Assembly: GCA_001244265.2 (NCBI GenBank)
Contig: LN717261.1
Location: 2,247,591 to 2,311,590 of the forward strand
Direction of reading: 5' to 3'
Source of the DNA: Microbotryum violaceum
Lineage: Eukaryota
Length of the DNA stretch: 64,000 bases
Shown here: positions 7,702 to 38,062 of the stretch, piece by piece
Numbering within the stretch: position 1 is the stretch's first letter
How the letters are laid out: each line of letters starts with the position of its first letter
Position numbers and translations under genes: made by a program
The notes under the pieces: model-generated
What the model saw: the letters and a program-made list of their open reading frames with translations, nothing else
Told to the model about the DNA's origin: nothing
Database searches by the model: none

Positions 7702-8213
7702 ACGACTGCGGTAAAGTCCTCTTACTCTAGCGAAAAACTGAACGAGGGTGAACATCAAGAAGCGGCGAGTGACTTTACTCAGGGAGAAGGAGGAGGTCAG
7801 TTTCGACCGAACTTGAAGCCGTCTCGATTGATTTTTCAGTCTAGCCCAACCTATCTGACCTATCTGACTTTATTGTGGGGCCCTGCTCAGTCTCCCGAAA
7901 CCCATAGGGCCTTGGGCCGAAACTCCTCCCCTAGATCCTCAACACCATTCCATGATTCACATGTTTCTTCGTTATTCCCCTGTAATATCTCGCTTGGTTC
8001 TATTTTTCTCCGTCTTCTGTAGATGACTTGAACGCAAACCTCACTCCTGACATGCTCCGTTCGCAGCGTGTACAAGAAAAACTCCGGGTATCAAATCATG
8101 ATCATATTGAAATACCACCAGAAAAAAAAAGAAGAGAAAAAAAAGCCAGAAAGTGCATACAACAAAACCACAAAAGACACAGAAATGTGTCCCCCCACCC
8201 TTTCCCCCCTTCC

Positions 8214-17247: not shown

Positions 17248-20200
17248 CTACAACCAAGCCTCAATCAAACTCTTGCCAAATTCATCACTCCAAATCGGCA
17301 TCCCCGTTCTCTCCTCCAATATCTTCCCCATCGTCATCAAGCGCAGTTCGACATTCCCTCGATCCGTCCGTACGACTTGCGATAACTGTTTCAAAACAGA
17401 GAGAGAAGGCGCGCGGTGGTGCACGAGGTAAAGTGAGAACGCTTGGCCTTGAATTGGGTCCGAGGGCCATCTGCCGTGGAGGACGTAATCCCTTAGCGAT
17501 GAGGAAGAATCGTCGACGTGGGAAGCCACGGGTTTTGGAGGCTGAGCGAGGTAGTCAATAAAAGCAGATCGAAAGAGTTTTTCCTTGACAGAGGGCGTCG
17601 AACCAGTTTTTGAAGTAGCCCTTTTCGTCGAAGAAGTTTTCCCATCCCCGAATAAAGTCCCAAAGACTTTATTACCGTACAAATCAACGATGAAACTGAT
17701 CTGTTCTTGTGCCCAAATCTTGCCGTGCTCTTCTTCAAGTTGTTTGGCGTGGAAGAGACCATGATAAACCCCGACCAGGTCTTTTTTGTCCCGAGTGAGG
17801 CATTCGAGCAAGACTGTTGAAGCGAAAGCTTCGAATTCTGTCGGTGGCTTGTATCGCGTCGAAGAAGGGTCGCAGATGTACGAAACCATCGCCAAAGCTT
17901 CGACATCGTCTGAAAAACTGTTGACGAATTCTTGTAATCCCGCAGAAGAAGGTGACAGTAAACGTACGGTCCGACCAAAGTCAAGCACGGCCGATCCAGT
18001 CTCGGACTTTGAACGCGTAAAAATTGAGCGTACACCTCGGGGATCTTGAGCATACGATAAGTGACCTGTACGTCGTTTGACCCAAAGTGTAGTGTGATCG
18101 GCCAAAAAAGCCTCACGTTGGTGCGCCGACGAAGGCGAAGTTAGATTGAGCGCAAAAGGCCAGTACCGCGGTGTATCGACTTGAATGGTTTGAATCAACT
18201 TTAGTTCGGGGATCAATGTAGGCGCGACCAGTTGTTTGGCGCGCACTTCGGACTGCGCACCGGCGGTCGAGGTCGATATAGGGTCGACCAAACGTAATCG
18301 TACGGGTAAGAAAGTCGATTCGTCCGTGTCGATATCCCGGGCTACGAGGCAGCGCGGTTCGACGGCAATGGTCCACAGATGCCTGTAGGCTTGCAGATGA
18401 GAACGATTCTCACCGGGCATGGGTGGAAAGGCGGGGAAGAACGAGATGACGAGTGCTGCAATCGCGGCGTTTGAGGTCCCTAGGGTGTATTGACCGGAGC
18501 CAGCACACAGCAGCCCCAGTGCCATGTGTGAAGCAAGGTGCGTGCCGTACGTGACACCCTCACCGAAATGACCGTGGGCGACGCGTAGGCGACGCAAGAC
18601 GTTGATCTCTCCCGTTCCTGCCATGACCATCGACAACGCGACCGCCATAATGGACAAGCACGACCGGATCGCGTGGCGTCTGATCTTGGCTTGTACGGTC
18701 GGAGCTGCGCAATTTGACAAGGTGGGGGTTAGCACCTGCTTTCAAAACAAAAGTTGACGCTAGCTCGCTCTCAACTCTCACCTTTGGTATAAGCCGCTCT
18801 GGTCAATTGATCCAGGTAGTGAATCAAAGTCCCGTGGGCCTCCGCTGCCGCTGTTCCTGCAAACTTGAGTCCGATCGCAAAGCATGCACCGGCAATGATG
18901 CTCCATCTCGCAATCTCTAGATCCGCATCCGCTGCAACGCCCTTCTGCTTCGCCGTTTCGACAGCTTGGGAGATGAACATCGGTACGTGGGATTCAACCC
19001 ACGTCTTGGAGAGTTGAATACGATTCCAGAGGATCATCGCTCTGGCCAGCGTACGTACGAGAAGAAGATCAGCGCGAACGTAATCGAGGCGACGAGGGGT
19101 GTCTGGTATCTCGAGCAAGGAAGCGACGTCGTGGCGCTCGGTGCGAAGGTACATGAATGCTAGTGCCATTGTCGCTGCTGAGCTGGTCACGTTGATATCG
19201 GTGACGTGGCACGCTTTGGACGTTGACCCAGCAGGCGTGGGGAGAGGTCGATGCGATTCTCCGGTAACGAGTGCCCTCAACGTTTTGAGCAGTGCCACCT
19301 CTCCCGGTGTGGCTTCCGCGTTCGTACCGCTCGCGAGCATGATGAGACCAAACGAAAATCCTGCGGATAAAGCGTACGCTTCTCTACATGCCGCAGCGTC
19401 CTCGGTGGTCGTCACGTGAATCGCGCACAATTCCCTAACCATCACGTCCGCAAGTGTACGTTTCGAAGACCCAAGATGCAACAACCCCAGACCAAATAGC
19501 GAAGCGGCTTGTGTCATACCCGAGACGTTCAGTGTCGACGAGTTGGGTGGATGCAGAGCCGCCAAGTGGACCGAGAGAAGGCTCATGACCTTGGGGTCGC
19601 ATGTTCCTAGATACGTCGCGGCCAATCCCAATAAGAGTCCTATCGAGGTCGGATCGTGCTTCATCCGGAGATACTCAAACACTTGGTTGAACGCGATCTT
19701 GCTCAAATGCCCCGAAAGACCAAGCCCAAACAGGAACCCGGCATGCTTCGAATCGAGTTCGGCAGGTTTGTTGAAGGAGATGTGCGAGGCGTCGAAACCG
19801 AAATCGTTCATAGGACCAACAGAGCTCGTTGTGGAAGCAGCTTGGTACTGCAACGCCGCAGCGACACCGGCATGGAAGTTTGGCCACTCTAAACGCTCGC
19901 CATGACCCGGACTCCCGCTCTCGCGAGGCTCCTTTTCGACGAGTGAGACGGGCGAAGGCATTGGCAAGATGCGCGCAGACGTATTGATGGACGGAATCGT
20001 CACAGCATCCGTGGGCGGTCCCGAATTGGTGCGATAGGTGAACATCGCATAGCCAACGGGAAGAGCGAGCGTTCGATGCGAGAGGTAGAGCAGGAGCGAT
20101 TGTTGTGTCTGAGGTGTGAGCTGGTCGAGGGTTCGGTCGGCCCGATCTCCGCCAATAGTGACGGGCTCCACGAACTGCAGCATACGCATCACCTCTTCTA

Positions 20201-23200
20201 ATCGCCGATCCTCGTTGAACCTGACCGCGTTCGAGGTGCTGACGGCAAGGTCGTCTCTGTTGGCGGACGGTTGGCTCGACGAAAGGAAGAGACTCGTGGC
20301 CTTGCCAGCCTTTATCGTCTGTGCGATTTGGTCGATCGCGGTGGAACCACTCAAACTCGCGAGCTGGCCAGTCATAAAAGAGTTCAGTTCAACCGCTGTA
20401 CTATGCACTCCATCTAAGGTGATTTTTTTCTTACCTCCTTGTGCCCGTCAGTCGCATCTCGCTCCGGTCCTCTTCCTTGCCGCGCCAAATCGGGTCTCCT
20501 GATCAGCTCGTACGCCTTCTCGCCCATTCCAGCCGGTGCAGCACTCTGGCAAGCTCTAGCCGCTTCTCTCAACACCATGCCCACCCCAAGAGCAAGACGA
20601 TCGAGGGCTGCAGCATCGATACCCAACTCGACCATACGTTCGACGACGGGTTTAGAACGCAAGAGTGGGGTTTTGTTTGGGTCGTGGGATTCGACGAGGG
20701 TCGTAAAGAGCTGGAATAGCGAGTCGATCGTTTGGACTGGATGAGGCTTCAGAGCGTTATAAAAGTAGGCGCCGTCGGTACCGAACTGGTCTGCAATCCC
20801 TGAAAGCGTACACCATGACCGACGAAGTGGCAAGGTCGAATCCGACGAGGCGGTGCCTCGCAGGAGGATGGAAAGCTGATCCAATACTCTCGGTGGCGAT
20901 CGAGGCAGTGGCGAGAGCTTACCCGCAAGTGGCACATCTGTGTGCATGAAAGAGATCAGCGTGGTGAACTTGTTTTGGAAGAGACGAGCTGCGAACATAC
21001 TGTACGCCGTCTCATCCGAGGGGATCCCCAAAGACCGTCGGTAGACATCGACCCATTCCTCCAGACCCAATGACGCAGCCAATGAGAAAACCAATTGGCT
21101 GAGCCTTTTGCATTCGTCCATTTTTAACGTCGATAGCCTGAGATCCTCGGCGACGAGATGAAGCGTTGCGACGACTACTTTTAGATCCTCCCTTTCGGTT
21201 GCATCAAGTGGTGAGGCGATCTGACGAGCGTTCGATGGTGCGACCTTGGCTGACCGCAAGCTGCGAAACACACCGAGTACCGGGTCGTTGGGCGCATCAT
21301 TCGTAGCTTGGATGATCACGGTGGCCGCATCCCGGTGGTTTCCGGAAACTTCCACTTCACCCTGTCGCAGCAGTATAGCGGTGAACGCTGCCCATGCCCC
21401 TGACCGGTCTCTTTGACAGGTGACGCGAACCTTGCGTTCAAGTGAGACAAACTGGTCCGTTGACAACGTGAGGCTGAGCGCCTGCAAACAGGTCCTCGTC
21501 AAATCTTCGCGAAGCAGTTCATTCGTAGGGAGCTCCACGAGCGATCGATTCCCGTCCAGAGTGGTGACGCAGACGTGACCACTACCATTGCCCTCGAGCT
21601 TTCGGATAGGCCCTTCTCCGATTCGGCCATCGAAGGTGATGGGCTCGTCATGGCCCTGGACATGCGCAATTCTCCATCCCTGCGCACCTGGTTGCTTGAC
21701 CAAGAGATCTTTCACACCATTGCCTCGTAAGTGAGAGACGACACATGCGTGCGTGGCCGAGGTTTGACGTATCGGTGCGACTGACTGCGCGTCGACGGAA
21801 AGGTAGAGTAGAGTCTGGCTCTGGGGCAGAAGAATAGCGAGCATCGACTTGTCCCGTCGGGTGTCGAAGAGGAAGGCTTGTATATCGTCAAAGACGGACC
21901 TGCAAGGGTGAACATTGAGAGTCAGACATCAGGACATAAGCTCCTATACCAGGGCGAGGAATAACACGTACGGTCCATGGCTGTTTGAGAAAGCCATCCC
22001 CCACTTTTTCTCGACGACCCATTCACTCGTTTCTCGCTCCTCCAACAGGCTTTCGACATCGGCACCTAGCACCGGATTGAACCACGTGCGATCACCCGCA
22101 TCTCCGGTGATTGCGTTGACGGTCGTTAGAACATGACCTTGGCTTGAACCTCCACCTTGGCCGAGTGCCATCCGATCCATGGTCACGCTCAGCTCGTTCC
22201 GTGTGAGAGACGTCCGTCGATTCTCGTGGGCCAGCCCTGCCGAGGAAGCCTTCGTCGCATTGCGTCGCATCCCGACCGATCCTGAAGCGCCCGAAGCAGC
22301 CAACACTTCCATGAGAAGGTGTTCCTCATTCGCTTCTGCGGCGTACGAAGATGTCGGTGGTGCGGAGAAAGAGATGCGTCGATTGACGGAAGTGGAAGCC
22401 CCCGCGGCCAGCGACGATGAGCCAACGCTCATCCGAGGCGCAGTAGCAGCGATCGAACCGTTCCTCTTGCGCTTCGATCCTACTCGATCAATGGCTGCAG
22501 GATCCTGGTGAGTCATTTCCTCTAGTCCAGAAAGGATCATCGAGCGGCGCGCCGTCAAGTCGGACTTGACTCGCGCTTTACCCTTTGTCGAAGATTCTTT
22601 GGGTCTGTCGAGATTCGATCGGGTGCAGCTCCACACGTCGAGCTTAGACTCGACCGTGTTGATTGTGACGAGTAAGGCGTGATCGTCCAGGTTGAGAGCG
22701 AGAACCTGAACGATCTTGTGCGGTCGCAGGGTCGTTGTTGTGAGTTCTGGGTCTTCGATGCGTTTGATCGAGTGTTTGACATTGTCGAGCGTATGCCAGT
22801 GCCCTCCCTTGGTTTCGATCAAGACGTCGCGGGGTAGGGACCACATCTTGTTCTCCTCCGCTGATGGGGCATGGGTCGAAGAAGGTGGTGAAGATTCGTG
22901 TTGGGCCAAAGTGAGAGGGACGATCCATGGTCCAGCTCCCGTCGGTGCGAGTGGGTAAACGTATAGCTCGTCGGTCGAAAGGGAAACGAGCAAATGTCGT
23001 TCGAGGACTTGTTGGGTTGCGAAATTTTCTTGTTCGTTCTCCGATGTGGGTTCGGGTGGATGTAGGGGTAAGGGTAGAGGGTCGTCGGTCCATGGCATCG
23101 GAGGTGCAGGTTGGAAAGGGCCGAATAGAGCAGCGAGTCGATCTGGTCCGGCAGCCGTTGTCCTGGACGCAGATGAGGATGATGACGCGCCCGAGCTGTT

Positions 23201-23590
23201 GACTGAATGCTCGTGATTTGTGGCTCGGGTGGGAAGCTGAGCGAATACTGCCTGTCGTACGACGGCGTGGGGGAAAGAGTATGTGCGAGCGATCGAGGAC
23301 CCCGAAGAGTGCACGACGCGATGGCCGGACCAGGACAGGTGCTCGATAGTTGACGAGGACTGTGGGGACGCAACGAACAAGTGGGTAGATGAGGACAATG
23401 AGGAGGCCGGCGCTTCGGCTCGACGCGAGAGCTGCACGAGGCGGTCCAGATAGCTCGAACGCGTCGACGTCGCGGCTGTTGAGCCATCGTCGCGTCGCGA
23501 ATGGGACGTCGAGGATGATGCGAGCGGTGGTGATGCACCCAGCAAAGTGAAAGGGTCAGGATCGAGCCTCGGTACGTCGAATGCGAGCAT
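17248..23590 (-). CDS. APC1: Anaphase-promoting complex subunit 1 (APC1/BimE), multi-exon
   Basis: Motifs: RFNEDRRLEEV; WPNFHAGVAAAL; HAGFLFGLGLSGHL; REAYALSAGFSFGL; VMAGTGEINVLRRLR; YGTHLASHMALGLL; HLQAYRHLW. The start is placed at ATG 23590 (MLAFDVP); the ORF-track GTG at 23698 lies inside the transposon TIR. Confidence 0.93.
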
Positions 23591-23695
23591 TTCGGTTGGT
23601 TTTGTCTGGCCGCAAGCGGTGGAGGGAGGGAGCTTCCGTGCGACCGCGTTCGCTCCCCGCACTGGCCATTGAAGCGGTCCAAGCTCAAAAGCTCG

Positions 23696-23831
23696 CACCT
23701 CTGGCTATATATATAAGCACGCTAATAAGTGGCGCGCGCCGCGCGCCTCCGACCCTCGCTTCCGCGCGACGTAGCCATACATGTTGCCCCCCCTGCAACC
23801 CGGGTTGCTGGATGGCGCGAGGACTAGCGCA
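23696..23831 (+). repeat. Left terminal inverted repeat (136 bp)
   Basis: Reverse complement of 34179-34314 with 7 mismatches by manual comparison. Contains a TATATATATA run and the palindrome GCAACCCGGGTTGC (23795-23808). Confidence 0.97.
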
Positions 23832-23998
23832 ACTTGCTAATGAGATTGACCTATTATTAGGGAGTACTTGTGCAGTCGCCCGCAGAGCTGTCTCTTCCAG
23901 CCTCCCCCGCTCAGCGCCAAATCAGACCCGCCTCAGTTCTAAGACGAGCACCAACTATTGTAACACACAGTAATACATTCTCGGATTTGCATCAGACA

Positions 23999-26900
23999 AT
24001 GGGCAGGCATAAATGGAATCGCTTCAAGTTCCGACCTGACTACTTCGAGGGACATCCTGACTATAAGCCCCGACGCCTTCGTTCGGACCCTCAACTCCGC
24101 ACCAACATCCCGGAACCCGGCACATGGTTACGTACACTGCGCGCCAAATTCAGCAAAGAACCTTCAATGAACATGCTCGTGGCGAAGCTAGCTCGCCGTC
24201 TCCTCGGCCTCCAATGGCCCCTCCGATTCAGGCCGATTTCGACGAAGCCGCCAACCCGAGTGGGATGGATTGGGATGATGAACGCCACAGCGAGTACGGT
24301 GGTGGCTATGAACGCGACTTTAGTCCGGCCCCATACTTTCCGGATCGAACATCCCATATACCAATCGCGCCTGACTATAGTGCAACCGCCGAGCGATTAT
24401 CACTGGCTGATCTGCGCCAAGACGAAAGTTTCGAACCAGCCACACGTGGTCAGTCGAAGCAAGAAACGTACAAGCAGTTCGTGTTCAACGACTCTCGTCT
24501 TAGGCGCTTGGAACGGCCAGCGCTTCTGCGCCAGTACATCGCGTTTTGCGCTGGGGTCAAAGGTCATCTACGGCCCTTGATTGACGTGGACGAGGAGCTG
24601 TGCCAGGGTTCGGTCGCTAGCGAAGTGCCGCCGCCTTGTTCATGCGAGAGCCCCCTCACATTACTGCTTGACGTGTACGACCTCATAAGCTGTATGTGAA
24701 TAAGGCAAGTTGGGTCACTGTGTCGAATAACGCGCTGACAAGGTCGAATCGATGCAGTGGTCGAGGTACCGATCGCTTTTTGTCCGAGATCCAGCAACGA
24801 TAGCCCATGCCTTACGTACGCCGAGCGCCTTGCTCAGATCGGATTGATCGGATCGACCGCAGCTGCTCCTCGCTCTGCCTTCACCTTTCGACTTGTACAA
24901 TTTCTCGACTCCTGGTGGAGGACCGCGCCGTTTCCTGTTGATGGAGCAGCTCGCGGGCTCGACATTTTCTATGAGCAAACTGGATGGGGTCGGCCGGGCC
25001 TGAGTCAGCATAAATTCGTGAGCTCGACCCCCTGTCATGGTTGCTATTGATCATTGTCTGATATTTATCATCGTTCGCGCAGGACAAGGAGCTGCGAAAG
25101 CAACTCCAGCGCGCCCTTGACGAATTTCGGGCTCTCACGACATCCGAGCGAGAATTGGGCGACCTCGTCCTCGGTGTCGCGGGTTCTCTCTCGGATAAGT
25201 GTCCAGCATGCTACGGATCGACGCGTCTAGATCAAGCCCACCATAGAGTCGAAGTGCAGCATCTTGTCGCTCTGGATGGCAACTTCCAACATTCTCGCGA
25301 CACCTCAGCCAAACACGATTTTCAGGAGTCGACGCCAGCCCTCTTCATCGGCGAAGGCGAGCTCGAATCGATGAAGGAGATCTGTGATGGTGGCGACAGC
25401 AAGAAGTTAGAAAAGGTCCGCTGATCCGAGCCGCCCCCTGCGATCCTCTCAACGCGCTGACGCCCTTCCTCTCGCGTCTTGAAGGCCTGTGCCGATTCGT
25501 GGAAAGCGGCCAACGGCGGTGCGACACAAATCTCGCGGGGCAAGTCCGATACGGGCCTAGTTGTCTGTGTTTGCCGTCACGATATCGCGTTGAAGATGAT
25601 CAACTTGTATCAATCAGGCGAAGAGGTTCGTCAGCTCAGCTCCTCTCTCAACCGCTTACAAGGCCTGACGCTTGTTTTTGATGAGGCAGGCGCTACTACG
25701 GCTTATCGCTGCTGCAACATATTTCGAACCAACTCCCTTCCAACGATACACTCGGAGTGCTGTATGATGTTGCGTGTAATTTGGACGGCTACATGCAATC
25801 GGTCAGCAAGAGTGGCGGATCCGTCGTTCCTTAGATTTCTGGCCCTGGGGCGCCGCTGACCTGTACTGTACTTCGATCGCCTGCAGAGAAGTATCCTTCC
25901 CGATCTGTTTCCGAGATTGAAGTTTGCCACGAGCGTGTTTCATGCTTTTGCTCATCAATGGCCCTGCCAGCTTGAGTACAACCCGCGCCTGATTCAGCAC
26001 TTTGGGTTGACGGATGGGGAGGGATGCGAACGCGTTTGGAGTCAGCTCCGATCGCTCATCCCGATCAATCGTCCTGCGAGCGCTTCTCACCGGCGCGTCA
26101 ACATCTCGCGTCGCATCGACCTGATGAACAAGAACGGTGTTGACAGCCTCGGTATACTCTGCCATCCACACTTTCACGCCGTGTTCGTTACTTAATTGTG
26201 CGGTCCCTCCGAATGCTCAAGATCAGCTTGGAAGGACACAAACTGATCTGAGTGACGTTTCGGCAATATGGTCCGAGTCTGACCTTCTCGCGCAATGGGA
26301 TTTACAACGAGCTGCTCAAGCGGCCACAACGGCGGGTCAACGTCGGGAGAACGAGGACAAGGAGCGATTAGAGCTGTTTAACATTGTACAGAGGCTACAC
26401 CACATGGAAGAAAGGCTGTACGTTCGGCGCGTCAAACCCCATTGGAGGACGAGGGCGTAAAATTGACACTGTGTCTTGGCATTGTGTGTTCAGATTCGAT
26501 CCAATGGCTTCCGATGAAGCGAAGGCTCGCTTGCAGCAACAGCTAAGAGCTTACCAACAAGAATACGATCGCACGAAGGAGCTTGCAGCTTCAGGTGCGG
26601 CGCGCGTCCTATCTTTATGTGTATCGCCACCTGATGTTTGATGTCCCATGACATACCTAGATTTCCAGCATTTGTGCAACTGCGTAGTCAAACTTCGCGC
26701 ATTACACAAAGCGACGGTCCAATTGCAATGCTGTCAAGAACGAATTGACTCAATGGGTCGCGGACGAAGCGGCGCAACAATCGGTCAAGTCGAAGCCAGC
26801 AAGCTTGTCAGCGTCTCACAGACGCACAGCAAGAAAGTAAAAGTGGCAATCGATATGTACAATAAAGCGGTCGGGGATTACCGAAATGCTGCGACCGAGC

Positions 26901-28019
26901 AATCGACCCAGATTCTGGACAACTTACCGCTCGCTACCACAATCAAGTCGCTTGTGACTCTGTCGCCAACGGACGCTTTCTGGCAAAACGGTTTTTTCGT
27001 ACACGACACTGCGCCTTGGGCGATTGATACCGATGTTCAGAAAGGGATCAAGGCGGTTTTACTCAAAGCCAGGGCGGGAGAAGAGATTCTCCGGATCGGA
27101 GCTGAGGTTCGACAACTACTTGCGTGGCTCGAAGATGAGGACACTCGCTTTGTTAGGGTATCTCAGGCATGGGCAGAGGACCGAGGTGAGATGGACACAC
27201 CCTTTCTTTGTGTTGGTGCTGTACCTTACGTCGCCCCTTCTATTAGTTCCCGAAGAAACGCTCGAAGCGGCTAAGAAACTTCTCGGAACTGACGGCGCGG
27301 GCGAGGTTGGCACTGCGGTGTGGCATGTGCTTCAACGCCGGCAGATTTAGTTCAAAGAGCGTCTGGATCGGCTGGCCGAACGCGATGATCTCTCGGTTGT
27401 CTGGTTTAGAACGCGTTCACTCGCACTTCATGAATCGCGGCCCTCGGCATTTGGTTTGATCGGGGGACTTTTCGCCGGACGGGCGAAACAGGTGTCGCGC
27501 CATTCGCGCAGTAGTCCACGTCATTTCGGTCGCCGCCATTCGACGCTAAATAATACTCAAATGCAGAGCCCCATCGCTGAGTCGAGCCGCAGCTTATCAG
27601 GTCCCTCTGCCGTGGACGTGCGCCACACACCCATCGACCTCGACGCATTCCGAAGGGAACTTGGCCTGACCCCCGATCCAGCCGCGGAGCAGGCCGAGCG
27701 AGACCGTGATGACGTGTATGAAAGACGAATGGAAGAACTTTTGAGTTCACTATCGGAGCAGGAGGTCGAGGAAGAAGATGATGCTGAGTACGGGGAGGGC
27801 GACGGAGAGTCGGGCTCGACAAGCGTTGAAGACTCGGACGACCTCGAGATTCTCGACGGAGCCCATGGGCTAGCTAGGGATGGTTTGGCGCATTTGTTGA
27901 CTGTAGGTTATTTGTTATTGAAGGACTTTGCTTTTTTTATGCGGCCCATATCGCACATGGTGGAATGTGGACGCCAGTGCACAAAAGTAAAATGGATGTC
28001 AGCCTTAATGAGGCGTTGA
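23999..28019 (+). pseudogene. KDZ transposase with N-terminal CxC1-like cysteine cluster; intron-containing and probably disabled
   Basis: Motifs: CSC...DVYD; FCP...LAQIGLIGST..PRSAF; KCPACY; LDGNFQH; CADSWKAA; DTGLVVCVCRHDI; LGVLYDVACN; SVFHAFAHQWPCQLEYNPR; GLTDGEGCERVWSQL; APWAID..VQKGI; RAGEEILRI; acidic tail. There is an apparent frameshift near 24120 and an in-frame TAG at 27348-27350. The 3' end is uncertain. Confidence 0.9.
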
Positions 28020-28387
28020 CGCGTTGACCACGATCCCATGAGCCGGTCGCCACCGCCACACTCACCGAACTGCAGTACGTGACAAGCTTGAAGGTTCTGC
28101 TAAGTTGAAGACTAAAAATTGGTGCGCATCGGTGCTGACATTTGCAGGTTCAGGTTTGGGAACGTTGCCAGAGGGGGCGGGGGCGGTGAGGATTGGTGTT
28201 GCTGTAGTTGTTCTGTTCCAACAGCACCCCGAAGTGGGTCCAGACGCGTCCAACGGCGCTCCGTTGTACAGTGCTTGCGATAATATGTCAGCAAAAATCA
28301 ATGAAATACGTCACCGCATACCTACTCCGTTGACGTGATAGTTTATGAAGTCGGATATTGGTCCATCGGCCAAGGACATTGTAGGGG

Positions 28388-29028
28388 CTGTGTACTCCCG
28401 GGGGTACACACACACAGAGTCGGCGCGCGATAAGAGTGTAACCCCGGGGACCCGGCCTGTGCCGTCGACAAAGCTGTGTACTCCGGGGTACACAGTCATT
28501 CGGCGCGCAGGGTGTGATCACTCCCGGGGTACACAAGGCGCAAGCGGGGCCCCCCGGGAGTACACAGGCGCTTTCGGGCTTGCGCCTTGTGTACCCCCGG
28601 GGTGCCAAGCCGGTCACCGGTGGCAGATCACTGTATAATAACATGTCCGATTCTACACCGGCAGGCGGTTAATCCTTTCGGTAACTTCAGACACATCCTG
28701 GGCTTTGAGCGGGAGCGTGGAAGTTTGTTGTAATGCAGTTTCGCTCTGCTCGGTGGTTCGAACGGAGATTCAGTTAGAGAAGTGCATGGGCCTTGCGGGC
28801 TTTTCAGAGTGCAAGTCGGATGTAGCAAACGAATATTTCGTCGGTTTCGTCGCAGGAGGGTGTTCCATTCAGTAACTGCAGACACATCCTGAGCTCTGAA
28901 CGGGTGCGTGGAAGTTTGTTGTAGTGCAGTCAGCAAGGACGTCGGCGACGGACCGCGCCTGAGCCGTGGAACCCCGGGAGTACACAGCTGGAGAGGGCAC
29001 CGATCATGTGTACCTCCGGGGGTACACA
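28388..29028. repeat. Cluster of 8 full or partial GTGTAC(Y)CCCGGG(R)GTACAC palindromes, a hairpin with a ~27-bp stem, and an internal 59-bp direct repeat pair
   Basis: Copies are centred near 28399, 28445, 28484, 28525, 28555, 28598, 28975 and 29017. The inverted pair is 28519-28545/28578-28604. The direct repeats are 28681-28739 and 28872-28930. Confidence 0.93.
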
Positions 29029-29326
29029 CCGCCACGCCGGTTGTACAGTGCTTGTTAAGAGTGTCCTAGAATTGATGAAGCATGTCGTCGCATACCGCTT
29101 CCTCATTTCCGGAGGCGCGGGACTCTGTTGTAGTGTATCTACGCCCTGCCCTAAGGTTTAAGATTGAACTAGAATTTCCGCCTTCGGAGTGCGTTGTACC
29201 TCGGAGTGAATCATGATTGCAGAGCAGGATCTCCATTAACACAACATACAAGCTAGACAGCTACACACGCTCACGGAAAACTCGGGATGGTCATCGCCTA
29301 ACCGGTGAATTGACACTCATGGTGCC

Positions 29327-30774
29327 TCATGTCCCAGTATCCAGGCCGCGCTCCAGCTCGCTCAGGCTGGTCAGCTCGGAGAGGGCGGAGAGGTTGCTTT
29401 TGGCCTCCGAGCTGGCTGCTGATCCGTGGTCGGAATGTTGGCCGGTTGCCGAACTGTGTTCCAATATCGCGTCGTCCTCTCATGCCCCTGAGGTCGACGC
29501 GGCACCCTCTCCGCCGGACCCCTTCTTGCGCATCCAACGCTACACGTCTCTCTGTTTGCTCGACAGCGCCAACCACCTGTGCGCACACTCAACAATTCAG
29601 GAGTCCCAGATCTTCTTCCTTTCGGGCTCGAGGTCCGCATCGGTGGGCGGCTTGGGAGGTTCGGGAACGTGGACGAGCACCGTCGTTGCAAATCGTCTGA
29701 GCGCTGCTTGCCAGGTGCGATGTTCGCTTTCTAACTGATCCCGGTAATCGTCCGGGACACGTTTCCCGAGAAAAGGGCGGTACGCCTTTCGGATCCATCT
29801 TAAAAGGCGGTCACTCCCCCTCCTGGTCCTCGTCGGTCCTTACATCGTCCTCAGGGAGGGGGCGTTGGCACTCTTGGTACAGGGGTGAAAGGATTTCACT
29901 GAATAGGCGCAATTCCTCATGTTCAGCGGCAATGTCGACGGGGACGGTGAAGATGCGCGCGAGGATATCGTCGAAGTCTTGGATGCGGGTCCTATACTCC
30001 TTCAAAACTCTCGCGCTCCCTCCACCTCTCTTTCGCTTCTGGTTATCGTATGCATCGAACAACACGTTCCTCCAATGGATGAGCACGGTCAACAGGCTCC
30101 GAGGCAGACGTCCATTCGCTTTGTACCCTGCCCATTCATCCCAAACAGGCCACATGACGTAGTCGATCTCCTCCCGGACCTCATAGTCAAAATTTTCGAC
30201 GCCCTCAGGGATTGGGTCTTGAGTCATGATGTCTTTGGGTTCCATCACCAGCCGACGCGCCCTTTCCGCCGCCCACTCGTCGTGCCTCGCACGGTCCGCT
30301 TTCCCCGGCGCCTCCAACATGTCAAGCTTGGCCTGCAACTGCCGGCGGTATCTTTTCTTTAGGTGGCCAAAACCCTAATCAGATCAGATAAGTACATCAA
30401 CAAAGGTTTAGCCGAATTCCATATAGTTTGTTTCTGATCTCCTGGGAAAGCTGTCTAGCACTCACTGCTTGGACCTCACAGTCGGTACCGATCAGCTCAA
30501 ACGCCGCCTCGTTGCATCTGTACCGACTGTCGACCGTAGACGAATTGAACGCGCGCTTGTGTATACGAATGATTTTTTTGTTTTGGTTTCGTTTGGCCTC
30601 ATGTGCATGTTCCGGTGCTACAGTTGGTCCGTCGAGTGACCTGTACCCTCCAGGCAGCTTGTAGTGTCTGTTGCAAAGTTCACAACGGACACGCCATTGG
30701 CCGGACTCGTCACGGATGAGATGCGAGTCGATGTCGAGCCAAGCGCGCTCGCCCTCGGTGGCGCGTGGTGCCAT
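29327..30774 (-). pseudogene. Transposon cargo gene of unknown function with an N-terminal CxxC...H putative zinc finger; 3' part has stops and a frameshift
   Basis: MAPRATEGERAWLD...WRVRCELCNRHY...EHAH. A phase-0 GTGAGT..TAG intron joins EVQA to GFGHLKKRYRRQLQAKLD (ORF 29811-30338). The protein-like frame continues past several stops (KKIWDS*IVECAHRW...). Confidence 0.55.
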
Positions 30775-30836
30775 GTTGGAACTTGGAGTGGGGGTGAGGG
30801 GTGAGATCGGTGAGAGGGAAAGAGCAGTGTCCCAAT

Positions 30837-30857
30837 GTGTACCCCCGGGGGTACACG
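30837..30857. promoter_or_regulatory. Isolated perfect palindrome GTGTACCCCCGGGGGTACAC between divergent cargo ORFs; candidate operator
   Basis: The sequence is seen directly, about 60 bp from ATG 30774 (-) and about 90 bp from ATG 30949 (+). The regulatory role is inference. Confidence 0.55.
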
Positions 30858-30948
30858 TCGCGCCTCGCGTCACCTCACGTCACCGAGCGCGCGCGCTCTC
30901 CTCTCACAGCATCACCGACACCGCGCGCGTCACAGCCGATCCGATCCG

Positions 30949-31605
30949 ATGCCCTCAGCGAATCACGACAAGTTACAATCAGCGATTCTCTCTGCAGGAC
31001 ACAAAGGTCAAGGTCATCGAGTATTTGCACGAGACAAGATATACTGGCCACCTGGCACATTGCCTGTCCCAGACGGGAAGCAACTTGAATACGTAGTCGG
31101 CACCGAGCGCGTCGGACCTATATGGAAGCTTGCAGTGTATGCAAGCGACTCGGCCAACAACGAGCTTTGCTACTACGAAGTCATTGACGCCTCAGCACCA
31201 AGCTGCCACTATATCGATGCCGAGTTTACGCGCCCTTCCATTGACAATTCAGCAGAAAAGGCATTGATTACGCGTAATGCAGCGTCGTATCTCCCTGGCA
31301 CATATGGTCAGCTAGCCAGCTCGGACACCTTGCGATCTTGCGTCTGCAGGTCAGAACTGCCGAACTACCTTGTTCCCTGCTTCTGTTTTATATCTATTGT
31401 TCCAGCGTCAACGAACAATCTCGGCTTTCATTCTCACCGCGGGCACACCGTTTGGAGAACCCAACGCGAAGCGTGTTATTACGGACATTCTCGACAGCTT
31501 GAAGGTTCTGCTCTCACTTCGCCGGCGTCTCGGGGGTCCGAAGGGGTAGTCGGAGAAATTTGGGTGCTTTGCTGTTGTCACCCCCAAGCTCTGGGGCGAG
31601 CTTAA
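30949..31605 (+). CDS. Hypothetical cargo ORF divergent from 29327-30774
   Basis: Open frame MPSANHDKLQSAILSAG...IYWPPG...LEYVVG...WKLAVY...YYEVID. No family recognised, and introns are possible. Confidence 0.35.
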   Translation: MPSANHDKLQSAILSAGHKGQGHRVFARDKIYWPPGTLPVPDGKQLEYVVGTERVGPIWKLAVYASDSANNELCYYEVIDASAPSCHYIDAEFTRPSIDNSAEKALITRNAASYLPGTYGQLASSDTLRSCVCRSELPNYLVPCFCFISIVPASTNNLGFHSHRGHTVWRTQREACYYGHSRQLEGSALTSPASRGSEGVVGEIWVLCCCHPQALGRA

Positions 31606-31918
31606 CTGCAGTTTGACATTAGGTAGGATGCGTGAGTGCTTTATTTGGACATCCATTAAATGCCTGAATTGAATGTCCGGAGTAAAGTCTAAAACGTTAG
31701 GCGTCAGTAAATCTATTTGCTTTGCGATCAAAATCGCGTCGCATAATTGATCAACGGACGAATCAGCTAGTCAAGATGCGTGGAAACTTGTTGAATACCT
31801 CTTGCCACACATAGGTCAATATCACCTCAACGACTACAAACAGTTTGGCCATCTATCTCAACGCGCAATAGGCGCACCAACAATATACTGAACAACAGAA
31901 ATGTAGTCGGATTCGGAA

Positions 31919-33780
31919 TCAGGATGTTGCAGCTCCCAAATCAGCATCAGAATCGGAATTAGAATTAGAATCAGAACCAAGATCAGAAGCAGAAGCAGAA
32001 TCAGATCCAGAGACTTGGTCTTCTGGCTCCGTTTCCAACTGACCGGTTGTCACAGTACCTTCGGCACGAGTGCGGTCAAAAGAGCCCTGGCCTATCTCCT
32101 CTTTGAGTGAGAAAGTAAGGCCACCCTGTCGCATCAGAGGGATGATTCTTCTCAAATCCGCAACGGTCGGCTTCTTGCCATTTGTGGGACTGCGGAGATC
32201 ACGCTCTTGAAGACCATTTCCGAACTCGACAATAAGAGCGATTGGATCCTTCGCAAGAGTTGCCTGGTTATAACTCGTAAGCTTGGAAAGCACGTAGGGC
32301 TGAGTAGATCTATTTCTCTGGTGGTGACGACGGAGCGCTTGATCTGCACGGCCACAGATGTTCAGTACTAGGCTGCAAAATGTGGGCGCAGAGCCGTGGA
32401 ATGGTTGCTCACTATAGTGATCGCCGATTATGATGCTATACCATGCGCAGAGCACTCGTTGAGACGCCTTGTCAACATCGCCATGATTAGCTGCTCATCA
32501 GATTTTGGATTCAGCGCCAATCCAACACCGAGCACAAATTACGTCCTAAAGCTTGCTTGACAAACCCCGCATCTTATATTGTTCATTTTGCTCCTGATTA
32601 AACCGAGTGCCATTAACTCAATCCGTGAAGTTGACTAGAATATCTTTTTGCTGGTCAGAATCCCAGCCTTGGCGCCGCATGAAAGCTGCGCCGCCAAGCG
32701 TAGAAACGATAAAACGATCATTTTTGTTCTCGAGCTTGTTCGAGCTGACGATGACTAACGCGTCGAAGCCGTAGCCCTCAGCATACTGCTCAACCTAATT
32801 CGGTGCCGAGCTACGTAAGTCAGCAGGGGGAACTTGGCCTCTGAGGAGGCGGAAGCGGAGAGCCGAGTCTTCACGGACCAGCTCGTTCATCGCATTTTCG
32901 TATCTGCGCCGCAGTTTGGAGATGGTAGCAGAATCGATTCGCCATCGCTTGAGGGGCCGAGCGGTCTCCTTTCGATCACGCGCTTCACTTGCCCTCGCTT
33001 CCTTCCATTGTTCCCAGAGTTCTGGTGAGTTTTTGACTTGTTCCCAGTAGCGTGATCCAATCGCCTGTAGCGCAGAGAAGTCTTTCGGGACTTTGTAGGG
33101 GTCCGAGTGATGGATTTGTCTGTCAGAGTAGCGTCTTGTAATGGAGAGCAAACGGTTTCGGGATGAGTCAGGAAGGCAGACGCTACACTTACCCTCGAGT
33201 CCGTTCTTTTCGAGGAGACAACGGAAGAAGCGGCTGGTCTTGAAGTCATTCCAGTCGTTTCGGTCGTTGCTTCGAGTCGCAGGGGGCGTGTACGAGTCGA
33301 GATCGTCGTCCCGAACTCCATGCCGCAAACAGTATTGCATCTTTTCGAGGCGACGTTGCAAGTTATAAAGCACGTGGGTCTCCTTTTGCGACGATGACAG
33401 GCGCGAAGTCGAAGGCAACGCTCGAACGGCATCGTGGAGGGCTCGGATCTCATCCTGAACCTCTTCGATTCGATGACTCATTGAGTTGGACGAGTTGGAC
33501 GTGGTCGGCCTTGAGGCGAGCGTCGTGCTTCGTCCATCTTCCGCGATGCTGGAAGCAGAAATGTGGTGCTGTTGTGTCTGAACGGTCGCTGAGGACGACA
33601 GTACAGACCCCATTTCGGGGCTGCTGGTCGATTGCACCGAAGCATCTTCGGCGGTAACAACGAGGAATGAGGAGTAGGGTCAGCAGACAATAACAAAACA
33701 ATCAAGACACGAGGACGCGTCTCACGGTCGGGAGCGGCAAACGCTGACGCGTTACTGGGAGCAGACAGGAGAGGCAACAT
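31919..33780 (-). pseudogene. KDZ-element companion gene convergent with the transposase (helical, possibly HMG-like segment); contains in-frame stops
   Basis: The spliced reading is MLPLL...|...NDWNDFKTS...IGSRYWEQVK..PELWEQWKE...RRYENAMNEL|VEQYAEGYGFDALVIVSS...GGAAFM...NFTD*VNG...SKL*, then ORF 31919-32455 with an acidic S/D tail. Stops are at 32618-32620 and 32546-32548. Confidence 0.6.
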
Positions 33781-34178
33781 ATCGTATGGTCGGATGGCTT
33801 CGAGTCAAGATATACGACCGAAAGCGGAAGGGAACAGAAAGTAGTAAGACCAGGACTGTGATCGATAACGGCGCGTCAAGCGGCAACGCTATCGCTCGCT
33901 CGCGCTCAGGCTCGCTACGGCCGGTCTACCAGCGTGGTGAGATGGCACGTGACTTAACCACGTCCATCAATGCTACCTTATCCCCACCGCTAATGAGGTA
34001 ATGATGTAATGATGTTCTAATCGATCTTCTTCTCGCTACTAATCTAAAGAAGAAATTGACGATGAGTTTTCCGAATATGCTTTATACACAATGGCAGCAT
34101 TTATAAGATTGGATTACCCCGATACGAGCTCGCACGTACATGAGATGAACGTGTTGAAGGCCACACCAGCCTCCGTGC

Positions 34179-34314
34179 TGCGCTAGTCCTCGGGCCATCC
34201 AGCAACCCGGGTTGCAGTGGGGGCAACATGTATGGCTACGCCGCGCGGAAGTGAGGGTCGGAGGCGCGCTGCGTGCGCCACTTTTTAGCGTGCTTATATA
34301 TATAGCCAGAGGTG
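34179..34314 (-). repeat. Right terminal inverted repeat (136 bp)
   Basis: Reverse complement of 23696-23831. Confidence 0.97.
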
Positions 34315-34472
34315 TTAAGCCGTGCCTAATAAGCCTAATAAGCCAGCCAAGAGTCAGCCGAAGCCCGAAGCTCATGCTCATGAGCGATGATCGATGTTCG
34401 GGCGCGCTTCTGACTCTCACCACCTCCACCGTCTTACACCAACACCAACTCCAACTACTTTACTTTACAAAC

Positions 34473-36497
34473 ATGCCCGGACTCAAAGTGAGTTCGTCCT
34501 CGCCAAGCCGTTTCACCCACTCTATACGAGCGAGTGGTGGGCCCCTCTCTAGCCCCTTACCCCCCGCCCCCGCCTTACTCGGCAGCTGACCCAACGCGTT
34601 ACGCGTTACGTGTTACCCCGGTCGTCGTTGGGTGGTGCGCTTCTCCTTTGCAGGTCGCTCTTCTTGGTGCCGCTGGTGGTATCGGACAACCGCTTGCTCT
34701 CTTGCTCAAGCAGGTACGTTCTGTTCTACTCGACCAGTCCAGAGTAACGCTTCTCTGGTAACTGACGACGGTTGTTGGGTTCCCGCCGCGCTCCCGCTCT
34801 CCGCCCCGCTGCGACCGCCGCGTAGAACCCTGCCGTCACCGAATTGGCCTTGTTCGATGTCGTTCCCGTCGTGAAGGGTACGTCCAAAAGAGCACACGCT
34901 TGATTCATCAACTGCTGTGACTGACCCCCGTTACTCTTCCCCTCCTCCAGGTGTCGCTGCCGACATCTCCCACGTCGACAGTCCCGCGGTCACGACCGGT
35001 TATACCAAGGACGACGATGGACTCAAGCACGCCTTGAAGGATGCCCAGGTCGTCGTTATCCCCGCTGGTGTTCCCCGCAAGGTCAGTGGTTTTCTTTTGA
35101 TTCCCGCGTCGATGCACGCCTCCGTCATTCACCGCCAAAGTGGGCAGTGAGCGCCCCCGTGCCCGCCCGAACTGGTTGGAACCGCGTAGAGAGTCGATGG
35201 GTCACCATCTATCCCATCCCCGGAACTCCGAATTTCCTCCTCGGCTGGCCACAGAGCGTACAACCCCCATTCGAGAAGGCGCCTCTCCTGTAGTACTCGA
35301 CTGACTCTGTTCTTGCATCTACTACACTGCTCAATCACGTAAACTCTTGATGGCGACGCTCTTGGCGACCTCGTAGCCCGGCAGTGAGTGATCACCACAA
35401 TCAGCATCCCGAGCAGCCTGCGCCTAGAACTGCCCTGAATACACAATCGATTCGCAGTGACCCGCGATGACTTGTTCAACATCAACGCCGGCATCGTTCG
35501 CGACCTCGCCACCGCCATCGCCGAGGTCTGCCCCCAGGCTTTTGTCTGCGTAAGTGATCTATCGGCGACACCTTCCTGTATGGACCACCAGACCTGACTC
35601 ATCTCATTGACATTGCGCGCGATTCAGATCATCTCCAACCCTGTCAACTCGACGGTGAGTGTCGAAAGTGAGACCTACGTCCCCTCATCAATTGAAACTC
35701 ACCACGAATTCGTCCTCTTGGTCACAGGTCCCTATCGCTGCCGAGGTCTTCAAGAACGCCAACGTCTTTGACCCCAAGCGGTGAGCACAACACTCCACTG
35801 TCACTATTAAAAATCTATGGCCGCCCAACTCACACCTGTTTTCTCACAGCGTCTTTGGTGTCACCACGTTGGACGTCGTTCGATCGTCGACCATGACGGC
35901 CCAAGCGATCGGTGAGCCGACCCATGGTCCCAAGTACAAGATCCCGGTCATCGGTGGTCACTCGGGTGTGACGATACTACCCCTCCTCTCGCAATCCGCG
36001 CCCGCCTTACCTTCCTCGCTCTTGAACGACCAAGACAAGTTGTCCAAATTGATCACCCGAATCCAACAAGGTGGTGACGAAGTAGTTCAAGCTAAAGCCG
36101 GTGCAGGATCCGCTACTTTATCGATGGCTTATGCTGGATACAAGTTCGTCGAGAGGTTAATCGAAGCCGCTTTCAAGGGAAAGAAGGGAGTGATTGAACC
36201 TACGTACGTTTACGTCAAGGATGACGCCAAGTTGCAAAAGGAGATTGGAACGCCTTTGGATTTCTTCGCCGTTCGTGTCGAATTGGGTCCCAATGGGGCT
36301 GAAAAGTTGTTACCTTTGGGTTCGATGAGTGAATTCGAGAAGGGCTTGATGAAAGCCGTGACCGGTGAATTGGGAGGTTCGATCACGAGTGAGTTGAGAG
36401 TGGTTCGTCCTTCGGGATTGGCTTACCCTTCGGATGGCTGATGGCTTTCGAGGTTCTCGTCGTCGCAGAGGGTGTCGAGTTCATCTCCAAGCTTTAG
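34473..36497 (+). CDS. MDH: NAD-malate dehydrogenase with C-terminal SKL (peroxisomal/cytosolic type), many short exons
   Basis: [83 protein letters not shown]. The last exon gives KGVEFISKL*. No mitochondrial presequence. Confidence 0.96.
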
Positions 36498-36676
36498 ATT
36501 ACGCTTTGCGATATCTTGCTACTTCTGCCTTTGCGTTCTTTGTTCAAAACAAAACTCCATCTGTCTTTTTCCCCAAAATAAAACCCCCTTGGAATGTGAT
36601 ATAAATCAAATCAACACCGAAAATCTCATTTTTCCTCAAAAAGTCACCCCACCCTTCTTCCAAGCAAAACCCAGGC

Positions 36677-38062
36677 TTATACTTTCCCTTCCTCGACGAC
36701 CTTATTAATCGAACTACCAATACCCCCACTCACTTCGACCTTAAAACTCGAACCATGAACCAGAATTTCTTTAGGTTCATAGAAGAAACCTATACCACTT
36801 GGCGTTCCGGTGAGGATGATCGTACCAGCTTTGAGAGTCGTACCGCGTGAGAGGAAGGCTATGATTTTAGGGATCGAGAAGCTGAGATCACTGATTTTTT
36901 TTTTGAAGTGAGCGTAGGGGTTAGTAAGGAGAGAGATTGTGAGATTTTTTGGGTCTTTTGTTGGAAAAAAAATGTGCGTACTTACTTGAGAGGACTATCT
37001 TGTAGCGTCTTGGTTTGAACATTGGGGTTCGTCTTGTGACCTTTGTTGAAGAGTTTGCTAGGCCCGGGATCGAAGACGTCGAAACGATCACGGGGCCTGG
37101 AGGTAGAATGAGAATGTAAGGTAGGAGTTTGAAAAAAAAGTTCCATGAATTTCGGTATAGTCTCGTGTCATTTGCTGACGAACCAATGGGGCATGCCGTA
37201 TCGAATCCTTTCGAGAAGCACCATTGAGATTGTTCGAATTGCACCTGCCAGAGTCGGTCGAACAAATACAATCAGTCGCCCCCAAAAAGTGGACGATCCT
37301 CGTTCTTACTCACCTTTCTGGACGAAACATCATTCCCCGTCGTATATCCCAATACATAATCCAAAGCCTCCTCCTCTTTAACATCTTTACAATCTTTACC
37401 TATTACTACGACCAATTCAGATTCGTAATCTGCCGCTTCGTCGTCGATGACGGAATGTGGGATGATGATTTTAGAAGGGTGAGAACCGGTTAGGGAGGTC
37501 GAGGGTTTGAGGAATAGGATGGGGACGGTAGGGATGGGGAGAGAGGCTTCTTTGGCGTGCTTGCGGTAGTTGAGGCCGCTGCAGTGTCGAGTCAGGTGGG
37601 GAGGAAAGGGAGATGATTGAGGAGGTTAGGAACAGAAGCGAACTTTCTATCATCAGGTTCAGCGAGACTTGGGGGATCGACGGAGCGGTAGTACAGAACG
37701 TTGAGAAGAAACTTAGTGACTGACATGCCTCGAATGGTGCCCACCTCCTCCTGACCCAACGGACTTAACAACTCGCCAATCTCCACCTCTTCCCCTGTAG
37801 CTTGACCAGCATTCAACACCGAATTACCGGTATACAACTTGACTTTGACGGTTTCTTTGGCTTCGTAAATCGCTCGACCGATATCGAGAGCTGCGTCGAC
37901 GGGTTCACCGATCACCGGTGAGGAGGATCCATGTGGGGACTCGGAGGGAATGAATCGAACGAGACGGGACCATTGAGAGGTGGGGGTGGTGGTCATGGTG
38001 CGTTTACGGAGAGCAGAAAAGGTAAACGGGAGCTGTCTCAGAGGGGTAGGGCTGAAGACCAT
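36677..38062 (-). CDS. Fumarylacetoacetate hydrolase family protein (FAHD/FMP41-like); apparent 1-nt frameshift near 37062
   Basis: Motifs: WSRLVRF; GLNYRKHAKE; LFLKP; DYESELVVIIGK; NDVSSR; QWCFSKGFDTACPIGP; GTTLKAGTIILTGTPSG. The upstream extension resembles a mitochondrial presequence; there is an alternative ATG at 37996. Confidence 0.88.

Follow-up and report, generated by a model that had tools for sequence, protein, structure and literature searches.

Introduction

Few cut-and-paste transposons are as large, or as little understood, as the KDZ elements. Upon insertion, characterised members duplicate 7-8 bp (PMC12730594) or 4-8 bp (10.1101/2025.05.19.654958) of their target; a target-site duplication (TSD) of 7-8 bp is a correlate of the KDZ superfamily and not its definition. 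In Cryptococcus neoformans the elements KDZ1-3 are 9.2-10.9 kb long and have long terminal inverted repeats (TIRs), a CxC1-KDZ gene and further open reading frames (ORFs) without domains (Huang et al., 10.1101/2024.08.15.608186). The Cryptococcus TIRs measure 139-241 bp and the duplications 4-8 bp (10.1101/2025.05.19.654958). Huang et al. assigned the Cryptococcus CxC1-KDZ proteins to Dileera (10.1101/2024.08.15.608186). According to a study of brown algae, accessory genes are frequent on fungal KDZ elements and the transposase genes are often pseudogenes (PMC12477816). The function of the extra genes is an open question in Cryptococcus, where KDZ jumps cause drug resistance (10.1101/2024.08.15.608186; 10.1101/2025.05.19.654958). 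Surveys of transposable elements in Microbotryum treat TIR elements as one minor, lumped class (PMC10502011). A literature search yielded an unrelated mention and no description of KDZ elements in this genus; Repbase and supplements lay outside that search and may hold the family. Here we analysed a stretch of 64,000 nucleotides from Microbotryum violaceum contig LN717261.1 (the window, to which all coordinates refer). At a probability of roughly 0.8, the segment 23696-34314 is a copy of a multi-copy, three-gene KDZ-superfamily DNA transposon family in Microbotryum. The three genes code for a CxC1-KDZ transposase, a convergent companion protein and a third protein, ORF-C.

The architecture as such is already known; novelty lies in the genus of the host, in which accessory proteins are present and in a missing duplication. 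Like Cryptococcus KDZ1-3, the Microbotryum element combines a similar size (10.6 vs 9.2-10.9 kb) with long TIRs (136 vs 139-241 bp) and a large gene with a KDZ and, tentatively in Microbotryum, a CxC1 domain. Like KDZ1, which has CNAG_00127 and CNAG_07313, it possesses a pair of additional coding genes lacking known domains, a parallel by description. Both systems also have a few to several copies in each genome and are polymorphic in their insertions. A preliminary description of the window, made from the sequence alone, had spoken of unrecognised cargo; this was not supported, and 9-11 kb multi-ORF CxC1-KDZ elements with domainless ORFs are in print for Cryptococcus (10.1101/2024.08.15.608186; 10.1101/2025.05.19.654958). 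The two systems differ in their target sites, with an 8-bp TSD for KDZ1, 4-8 bp for KDZ2 and KDZ3 and none at the Microbotryum insertion. Further, mobility is experimentally established in Cryptococcus whereas in Microbotryum it is known from an empty site alone. In rust fungi, Dileera elements with a TET/JBP gene such as Zisupton-1_PGr (PMC12730594) are likewise TIR-bounded KDZ elements from Pucciniomycotina that hold an additional gene next to the transposase. Their extra gene encodes a TET/JBP dioxygenase and their TSD is 8 bp (Kojima 2025, PMC12730594); here, in contrast, the additional proteins are weakly HMG-like and Cys/His-containing, respectively, and a TET/JBP domain was present in 0 of 25 scanned ORF pieces and proteins. 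Similarities exist with giant algal KDZ elements, those known from Ectocarpus and Chlamydomonas (PMC12477816): accessory genes, which are transcribed there, a broken transposase gene, there often a pseudogene with copies moved in trans, and rearranged or nested copies. Unlike these algal elements of 15-30 kb, the present one is fungal, has 10.6 kb and carries accessory genes so far found in Microbotryum only.

Results

Element limits, empty site and further copies

A repeat search and a self-BLAST of the window placed two TIR arms at the borders of the 10.6-kb segment (Table 1). The 136-bp TIRs of about 95% identity reported in the preliminary description are reproduced: the arms are 94.85% complementary with 7 mismatches in 136 nt. 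Self-BLAST gave no second copy within the window. The window was compared with contigs from four runs (X1, X3, X7 and X16), and matches of at least 88% identity were considered. Record 1 of run X1, an 11.7 kb contig, joins 21000-23696 directly to 34315-37000, with record positions 8034 and 8035 adjoining. This contig represents an unoccupied site. Because it connects both flanks without a gap, the element ends are exact, as had been claimed beforehand. Record 14 of run X3 covers the left flank and carries on inside the element as far as 23725 with 0 differing letters, i.e. the site is filled. Occupied in X3 and empty in X1, the insertion therefore is polymorphic.

Contigs of X1, X3 and X7 begin or cease to match at 23695/23696 and their flanks differ from one contig to the other. 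Behind 34314 loose ends were seen in five X1 contigs, four X3 contigs and one X16 contig. Four X1 contigs run on into unlike sequence at the left tip, and five do so at the right tip. These differing flanks at both tips demonstrate that other copies reside elsewhere; X1 supplied both kinds of locus, further copies and an empty site, for which the preliminary description had recommended looking. The k-mer depth over element versus flanks (about 577 vs 61.5 in X1, about 52 vs 6.4 in X3) shows that the element is repeated and does not give a copy number.

The transposase gene

The assignment of a CxC-KDZ transposase to the plus strand was borne out by Pfam matches in three of nine plus-strand ORF pieces. 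Two exons match KDZ (PF18758), at 25461-25859 with E 3.4e-10 and 40.4 bits, and at 25860-26195 with E 1.7e-22 and 80.6 bits. Both pass the curated cut-off of 26.6 bits and cover profile positions 51-101 and 144-215 of 217. CxC1 (PF18802) matches at 24739-25050 with E 3.1e-5 (24.5 bits, cut-off 26.9; profile positions 45-101 of 105; a single exon was scanned). Eight splice joints were obtained from spliced contigs of run X16, which is taken as RNA-derived solely because its contigs are spliced. Six of the eight joints are GT..AG; the other two are irregular due to local differences of that copy. With canonical introns near the X16 joints the transposase frame is open up to 27347. The spliced X16 contigs show that a related organism transcribes and splices the transposase gene.

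A spliced X16 transposase contig differs from the window (24758-25622) at 27 of 731 letters. For the flanking host genes, the differences in X16 contigs amount to 67 of 659 (22647-23305) and 44 of 538 letters (35849-36386). Between the window and the X16 organism the element is thus more alike than the host genes, as judged from few contigs and from matches of at least 88% identity. This could mean selection, introgression or transfer.

The companion gene

The convergent minus-strand companion gene, also part of the preliminary description, is real: its product is 98% identical to an annotated protein of 518 amino acids, P0004. The P0004 model includes a leader and introns which extend to about 34198, inside the right TIR. 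Each TIR contains TATATATA. Going by these sequence features, the TIRs may act as inward-facing promoters. The companion has a putative HMG-box-like segment and a conserved C-terminal part. No Pfam domain was detected in it. A HMMER search of 1.84 billion representatives with the first 272 amino acids as a query matched eight proteins. The most distant full-length matches, P0009 and P0010, are Microbotryum proteins as are the relatives P0011, P0012, P0014 and P0015. The paralogues are 24-26% identical to P0004, can be aligned end to end and have 33 invariant columns in common. Several are multi-copy, and the cluster of P0014 has 11 members. Judged from these alignments, the companion is an old accessory protein of several Microbotryum repeat families. 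Relatives outside of Microbotryum were found neither among the HMMER matches with a species name, which were two of the eight, nor by a word-based search with ORF-C. A metagenome contig scan with the companion alignment resulted in 234 pattern matches, of which 0 were confirmed.

The companion domain (P0004 residues from about 186 to 250) was modelled with a confidence score (pLDDT) of 73.8. In a PDB fold search independent of Foldseek, 15 of the 50 top rows were HMG boxes (12 titled HMG), with Z 3.3-4.4, a root-mean-square deviation of 2.6-4.7 and 52-69 aligned residues. The remaining three of the 15 are the HMG-box proteins Sox11, Abf2p and TFAM box B. By PDB sequence no HMG protein emerged: the companion profile had 0 matches at E up to 1, and the domain profile had marginal matches to Myb domains of the plant telomere-binding protein TBP1 only (E 0.42-0.86). 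The predicted fold resembles HMG boxes more closely than Myb, and the odds that the segment is HMG-box-like are about even. The model of the entire companion (pLDDT 47.1) retrieved only helical hairpins, a common fold, at Z 7.3-8.5.

The companion ends in a C-terminal tail rich in Ser and Asp (...SGSDSASASDLGSDSNSNSDSDADL), for which a 12-nt periodic repeat at 31939-32004 codes.

The central module

Between the transposase and companion genes lies a central module (28.0-31.9 kb), for which a palindrome cluster and a divergent ORF pair had been proposed. The minus-strand member of the pair, ORF-C, stands as a gene. It has 18 annotated Microbotryum homologues, two of 102-328 amino acids and 16 of at least 329 amino acids. 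They occur in M. lychnidis-dioicae, M. silenes-dioicae and M. saponariae, in the latter two spread over many contigs, and one cluster comprises 13 sequences. The relatives have 396-458 amino acids. Query coverage among the 16 longer homologues is at least 88% in seven and 24-41% in nine. The motif CELC...HAH is conserved in all six full-length relatives that were read. In the relatives P0020 and P0016 Pfam gave no match at E up to 1, including zf-BED (PF02892). A protein-atlas search with ORF-C exon 2 returned no usable match, and a PDB sequence search with P0020 produced one chance-level match (E 0.82).

The plus-strand member, ORF-D, is open and finds no other support. It has no Pfam match and 0 matches to PDB sequences. 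Its GC content at codon positions 1/2/3 is 0.57/0.51/0.50 and lacks the low second position of the eight confirmed exons that were measured. ORF-D as a gene is doubtful. The X16 contigs cover 28.5-29.5 kb and 30.6-31.7 kb thinly and were not used to judge expression of ORF-D or of the palindromes.

The palindrome cluster was confirmed. The palindromic 20-mer GTGTACCCCCGGGGGTACAC has four matches at up to 3 mismatches, all within the element, versus 0.01 expected. The 12-nt half-site occurs 17 times in the window versus 3.89 expected, and 14 of the 17 are located in 28390-30856. Tandem Repeats Finder reported no regular array in the palindrome region.

Altogether 25 ORF pieces and proteins were scanned with Pfam; the pieces, the TIRs and the palindrome cluster add up to the length of the element. 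The absence of a TET/JBP dioxygenase noted in the preliminary description holds for all 25 (E up to 0.01-1).

Table 1. Features of the KDZ element and its surroundings (window coordinates).
Feature	Position	Strand	Remarks
APC1 homologue	17248-23590	-	APC1_C, E 4.7e-37; ATG 106 nt from the element, which is upstream of it
Left flank at insertion point	23688-23695		reads AAAGCTCG
Left TIR	23696-23831		136 nt; repeat search, self-BLAST; TATATATA at 23706 (23706-23713), about 10 nt from the tip
CxC1-KDZ transposase gene	23999-28019	+	at least 10 exons; ATG 23999; TGA 28017-28019; Pfam and spliced X16 contigs
Palindromic-site cluster	28383-29032		GTGTAC-CCCCGGGG-GTACAC plus half-sites, two 79-nt direct repeats; between the 3' ends of transposase and ORF-C
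ORF-C	29327-30774	-	exon 1 30774-30466, intron 30465-30375 (91 nt, GT..AG), exon 2 from 30374; ATG 30774
Perfect 20-bp palindrome	30837-30856		63 nt upstream of the ORF-C ATG, between ORF-C and ORF-D
ORF-D (doubtful gene)	30949-31605	+	218 codons from ATG, 263 stop to stop; open
Companion coding region	31919-33613	-	convergent to transposase; 33613 down to 31919; match to P0004
Right TIR	34179-34314		136 nt; repeat search; TATATATA at 34295 (34295-34302), about 10 nt from the tip
Right flank at insertion point	34315-34322		reads TTAAGCCG
Malate/lactate dehydrogenase	34400-36500	+	Ldh_1_C, E 1.6e-33; element upstream of it

The accessory genes at other loci and rearranged derivatives

Run X1, which does not have this insertion, contains contigs on 28011-28488, 30016-30416 and 31498-32356, and its contigs cover 30 of 30 bins. 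The presence of module sequence in X1 and of ORF-C in other Microbotryum genomes means that the central module is not a one-off; the nested single insertion, which the preliminary description had named as its own possible refutation, thus was not found, with the module in X1 and ORF-C in three species. Several Microbotryum species contain multiple copies of companion and ORF-C, and at other loci both are found in physical linkage with sequence of the transposase or of a TIR. This does not support the notion of captured passengers: companion and ORF-C are regular parts of the element family and no unique captured cargo.

Partial coverage of ORF-C was traced to fusions. In all three partial-coverage models that were fetched (P0002 plus two from the nine models with 24-41% coverage, P0023 and P0025), the N-terminus of the transposase is fused in frame to the C-terminal half of ORF-C. 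All three are annotated M. silenes-dioicae proteins. They follow the transposase to ...LRQYIA (about 24543) and continue with ORF-C from about 30017 on the opposite strand. In addition, an inversion joint 27296<->33733 was present in three of four runs (X1, X3 and X7). Both observations suggest that a rearranged derivative of about 4 kb is common; it would consist of the left end to 24543, an inverted 30017-27296 and 33733 to the right end. At the breakpoints (about 24543/30017 and 27296/33733) there was no microhomology beyond chance matches of 6-8 nt. The fusion protein could be a regulator.

At 29672-29684 contigs of X1, X3 and X7 break into one shared foreign sequence on both sides, with an overlap of 13 nt. 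As read from these contigs, some other copies of the family have a nested insertion in the 3' part of ORF-C.

Decay of the present copy

The preliminary description called the element complete. This applies to its structure; the coding content is broken, with disabling changes in all three genes. In the transposase one nucleotide is missing after 24108, where contigs of all four runs have an extra C, and the frame switches in comparison to P0025. Further downstream TAG 27348-27350 splits a frame which is otherwise open for another 222 codons up to TGA 28017-28019, with coding-like composition; the TAG probably is a mutation. The companion has TGA at 32620-32618 in place of a Cys of P0004, in a conserved stretch. 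In ORF-C the frame shifts near 29820, and there are three stops, 29599-29597, 29542-29540 and 29482-29480. At position 29540 all four runs carry a letter that gives Tyr, not a stop. The TIRs are affected as well: at four of the seven mismatches (23726, 34252, 34270 and 34274) other copies carry the letter which restores identity of the arms. For its movement, such a decayed copy would depend on proteins from intact copies.

Discussion

How the element might operate

The element would move by cut-and-paste via its DDE-type CxC1-KDZ transposase. Transcription would run inward from the TATA-bearing TIRs, of the transposase from the left and of the companion from the right. The companion may bind DNA by its HMG-box-like domain, and the N-terminus of ORF-C would be BED-like and contain Cys and His. 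Either protein, or both, might recognise the internal palindrome array or the TIRs and in this way assemble or regulate transposition. A working analogy is PIF/Harbinger (Nuwa), in which the transposase is accompanied by a Myb/SANT DNA-binding protein (PMC12730594), i.e. by a second, non-catalytic protein that binds DNA by a small helical domain. However, PIF/Harbinger is a different superfamily, and the matches between companion and Myb are marginal (E 0.42-0.86). One may go further and picture a KDZ lineage that possesses accessory machinery of its own. There, several KDZ families of the genus, old and diverged, would share an HMG-box-like companion, and a BED-like ORF-C, either alone or together with the companion, would bind the 20-bp palindrome array and build or restrain the transposition complex. 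Integration would proceed without a TSD, and the fusion encoded by the abundant derivative of about 4 kb would be a repressor like truncated P-element proteins. Taken as a whole, this combination is a long shot.

Several observations speak against the three-gene KDZ family or against the roles proposed for its parts. At this one insertion there is no TSD: the flanks AAAGCTCG and TTAAGCCG differ and the X1 junction is without repeated letters, a reading which applies to this single site. The CxC1 match is 2.4 bits below the Pfam cut-off, with a single exon scanned. Outside of this locus no single contig spans transposase, module and companion; for other copies, linkage over the full length is therefore deduced from tiling and from the chimeric protein models. 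As for the companion, Pfam HMG_box was found in 0 of 8 family members at E up to 10, Foldseek with the domain model had nothing in the PDB at E <= 0.001, and the Z values of the fold search were all below 5. The similarity of ORF-C to two zf-BED clusters in a language-model comparison was 0.81, below the line of 0.9. Finally, binding to the palindromes is conjecture by analogy.

Alternative explanations

The structural oddities of the central module permit two other interpretations. The palindrome cluster may be a structure-prone or silencing segment, i.e. a source of hairpin or small RNA or a recombination hotspot that generated the inverted derivatives, instead of an array for protein binding. 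Many near-perfect palindromes and inverted pairs are crowded into 650 bp, the inversion joint 27296<->33733 recurs in three of four runs and the chimeric models require an inverted ORF-C segment. Yet both breakpoints that can be placed are outside of the palindrome cluster and have no microhomology beyond chance, and the lone perfect palindrome in the promoter region of ORF-C is better explained as a regulatory site. We consider this interpretation unlikely. It is also conceivable that the entire module was foreign DNA, a nested transposon or a captured host segment, in the founder of the family. ORF-C and the palindromes then would be true cargo without a role in transposition. A Starship-like cargo role has been raised by Huang et al. 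for the extra ORFs of Cryptococcus KDZ (10.1101/2024.08.15.608186). The inverted pair 28387-28409/28966-28988 (23 nt, 91%) could bound an insert of 600 bp that resembles a miniature inverted-repeat transposable element. Moreover, every ORF-C homologue from the word-based search has an identity of at least 83%; old diverged paralogues as known for the companion were not seen, which is weak evidence of absence because that search requires shared words of five residues. Against a foreign origin, the module is kept across three species and in a genome without this insertion, the rearranged derivatives retain the C-terminal half of ORF-C in frame with the transposase N-terminus and Pfam identified no host-like domain in ORFs of the central module. 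Foreign DNA in the founder therefore appears quite unlikely, and we prefer ORF-C and companion as regular components of a KDZ family.

The missing duplication might signify that the element did not arrive by ordinary KDZ integration. It could have used another route, or the X1 allele could be a clean loss and not the ancestral empty site. The length of the duplication is zero at the sole readable site, and the copy is far more altered, with 7 of 136 TIR mismatches and at least seven disabling changes, than the flanks, in which X1 and the window differ at 25 of 2697 letters on the left and at 3 of 2686 on the right. This excess can be explained by repeat hypermutation, which is documented in Microbotryum (PMC10502011; PMC12730594). 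Further, a single site is concerned, the exact joining of the flanks in X1 has the appearance of an unoccupied site, and duplications of Cryptococcus KDZ2 and KDZ3 already vary from 4 to 8 bp (10.1101/2025.05.19.654958). An unusual arrival or a clean loss is very improbable in our view. With clean bounds, an empty site, transposase introns supported by RNA, an alignable and divergent accessory family and a candidate array of binding sites, the locus is a starting point for work on the accessory functions of KDZ elements.

The insertion site and its neighbours

The element sits in a short gap between the genes for APC1 (minus strand) and malate dehydrogenase (plus strand), which point apart. 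The region is gene-dense and no repeat graveyard. If the element is removed, the starts of the two genes are about 230 bp apart. Two special types of target site were considered for the insertion point. A palindromic target duplication hidden within the TIR tips was ruled out as the tips, CACCTCTG, are not palindromic, and a piggyBac-like TTAA site was ruled out since TTAA is present in the right flank only. Directly outside the left tip, 23680-23695 reads CAAGCTCA followed by AAAGCTCG, two tandem 8-mers that are alike at six of eight letters. The pair looks like an old 8-bp footprint beside the insertion point or a chance similarity. Between X1 and the window the left flank is far more divergent than the right one.

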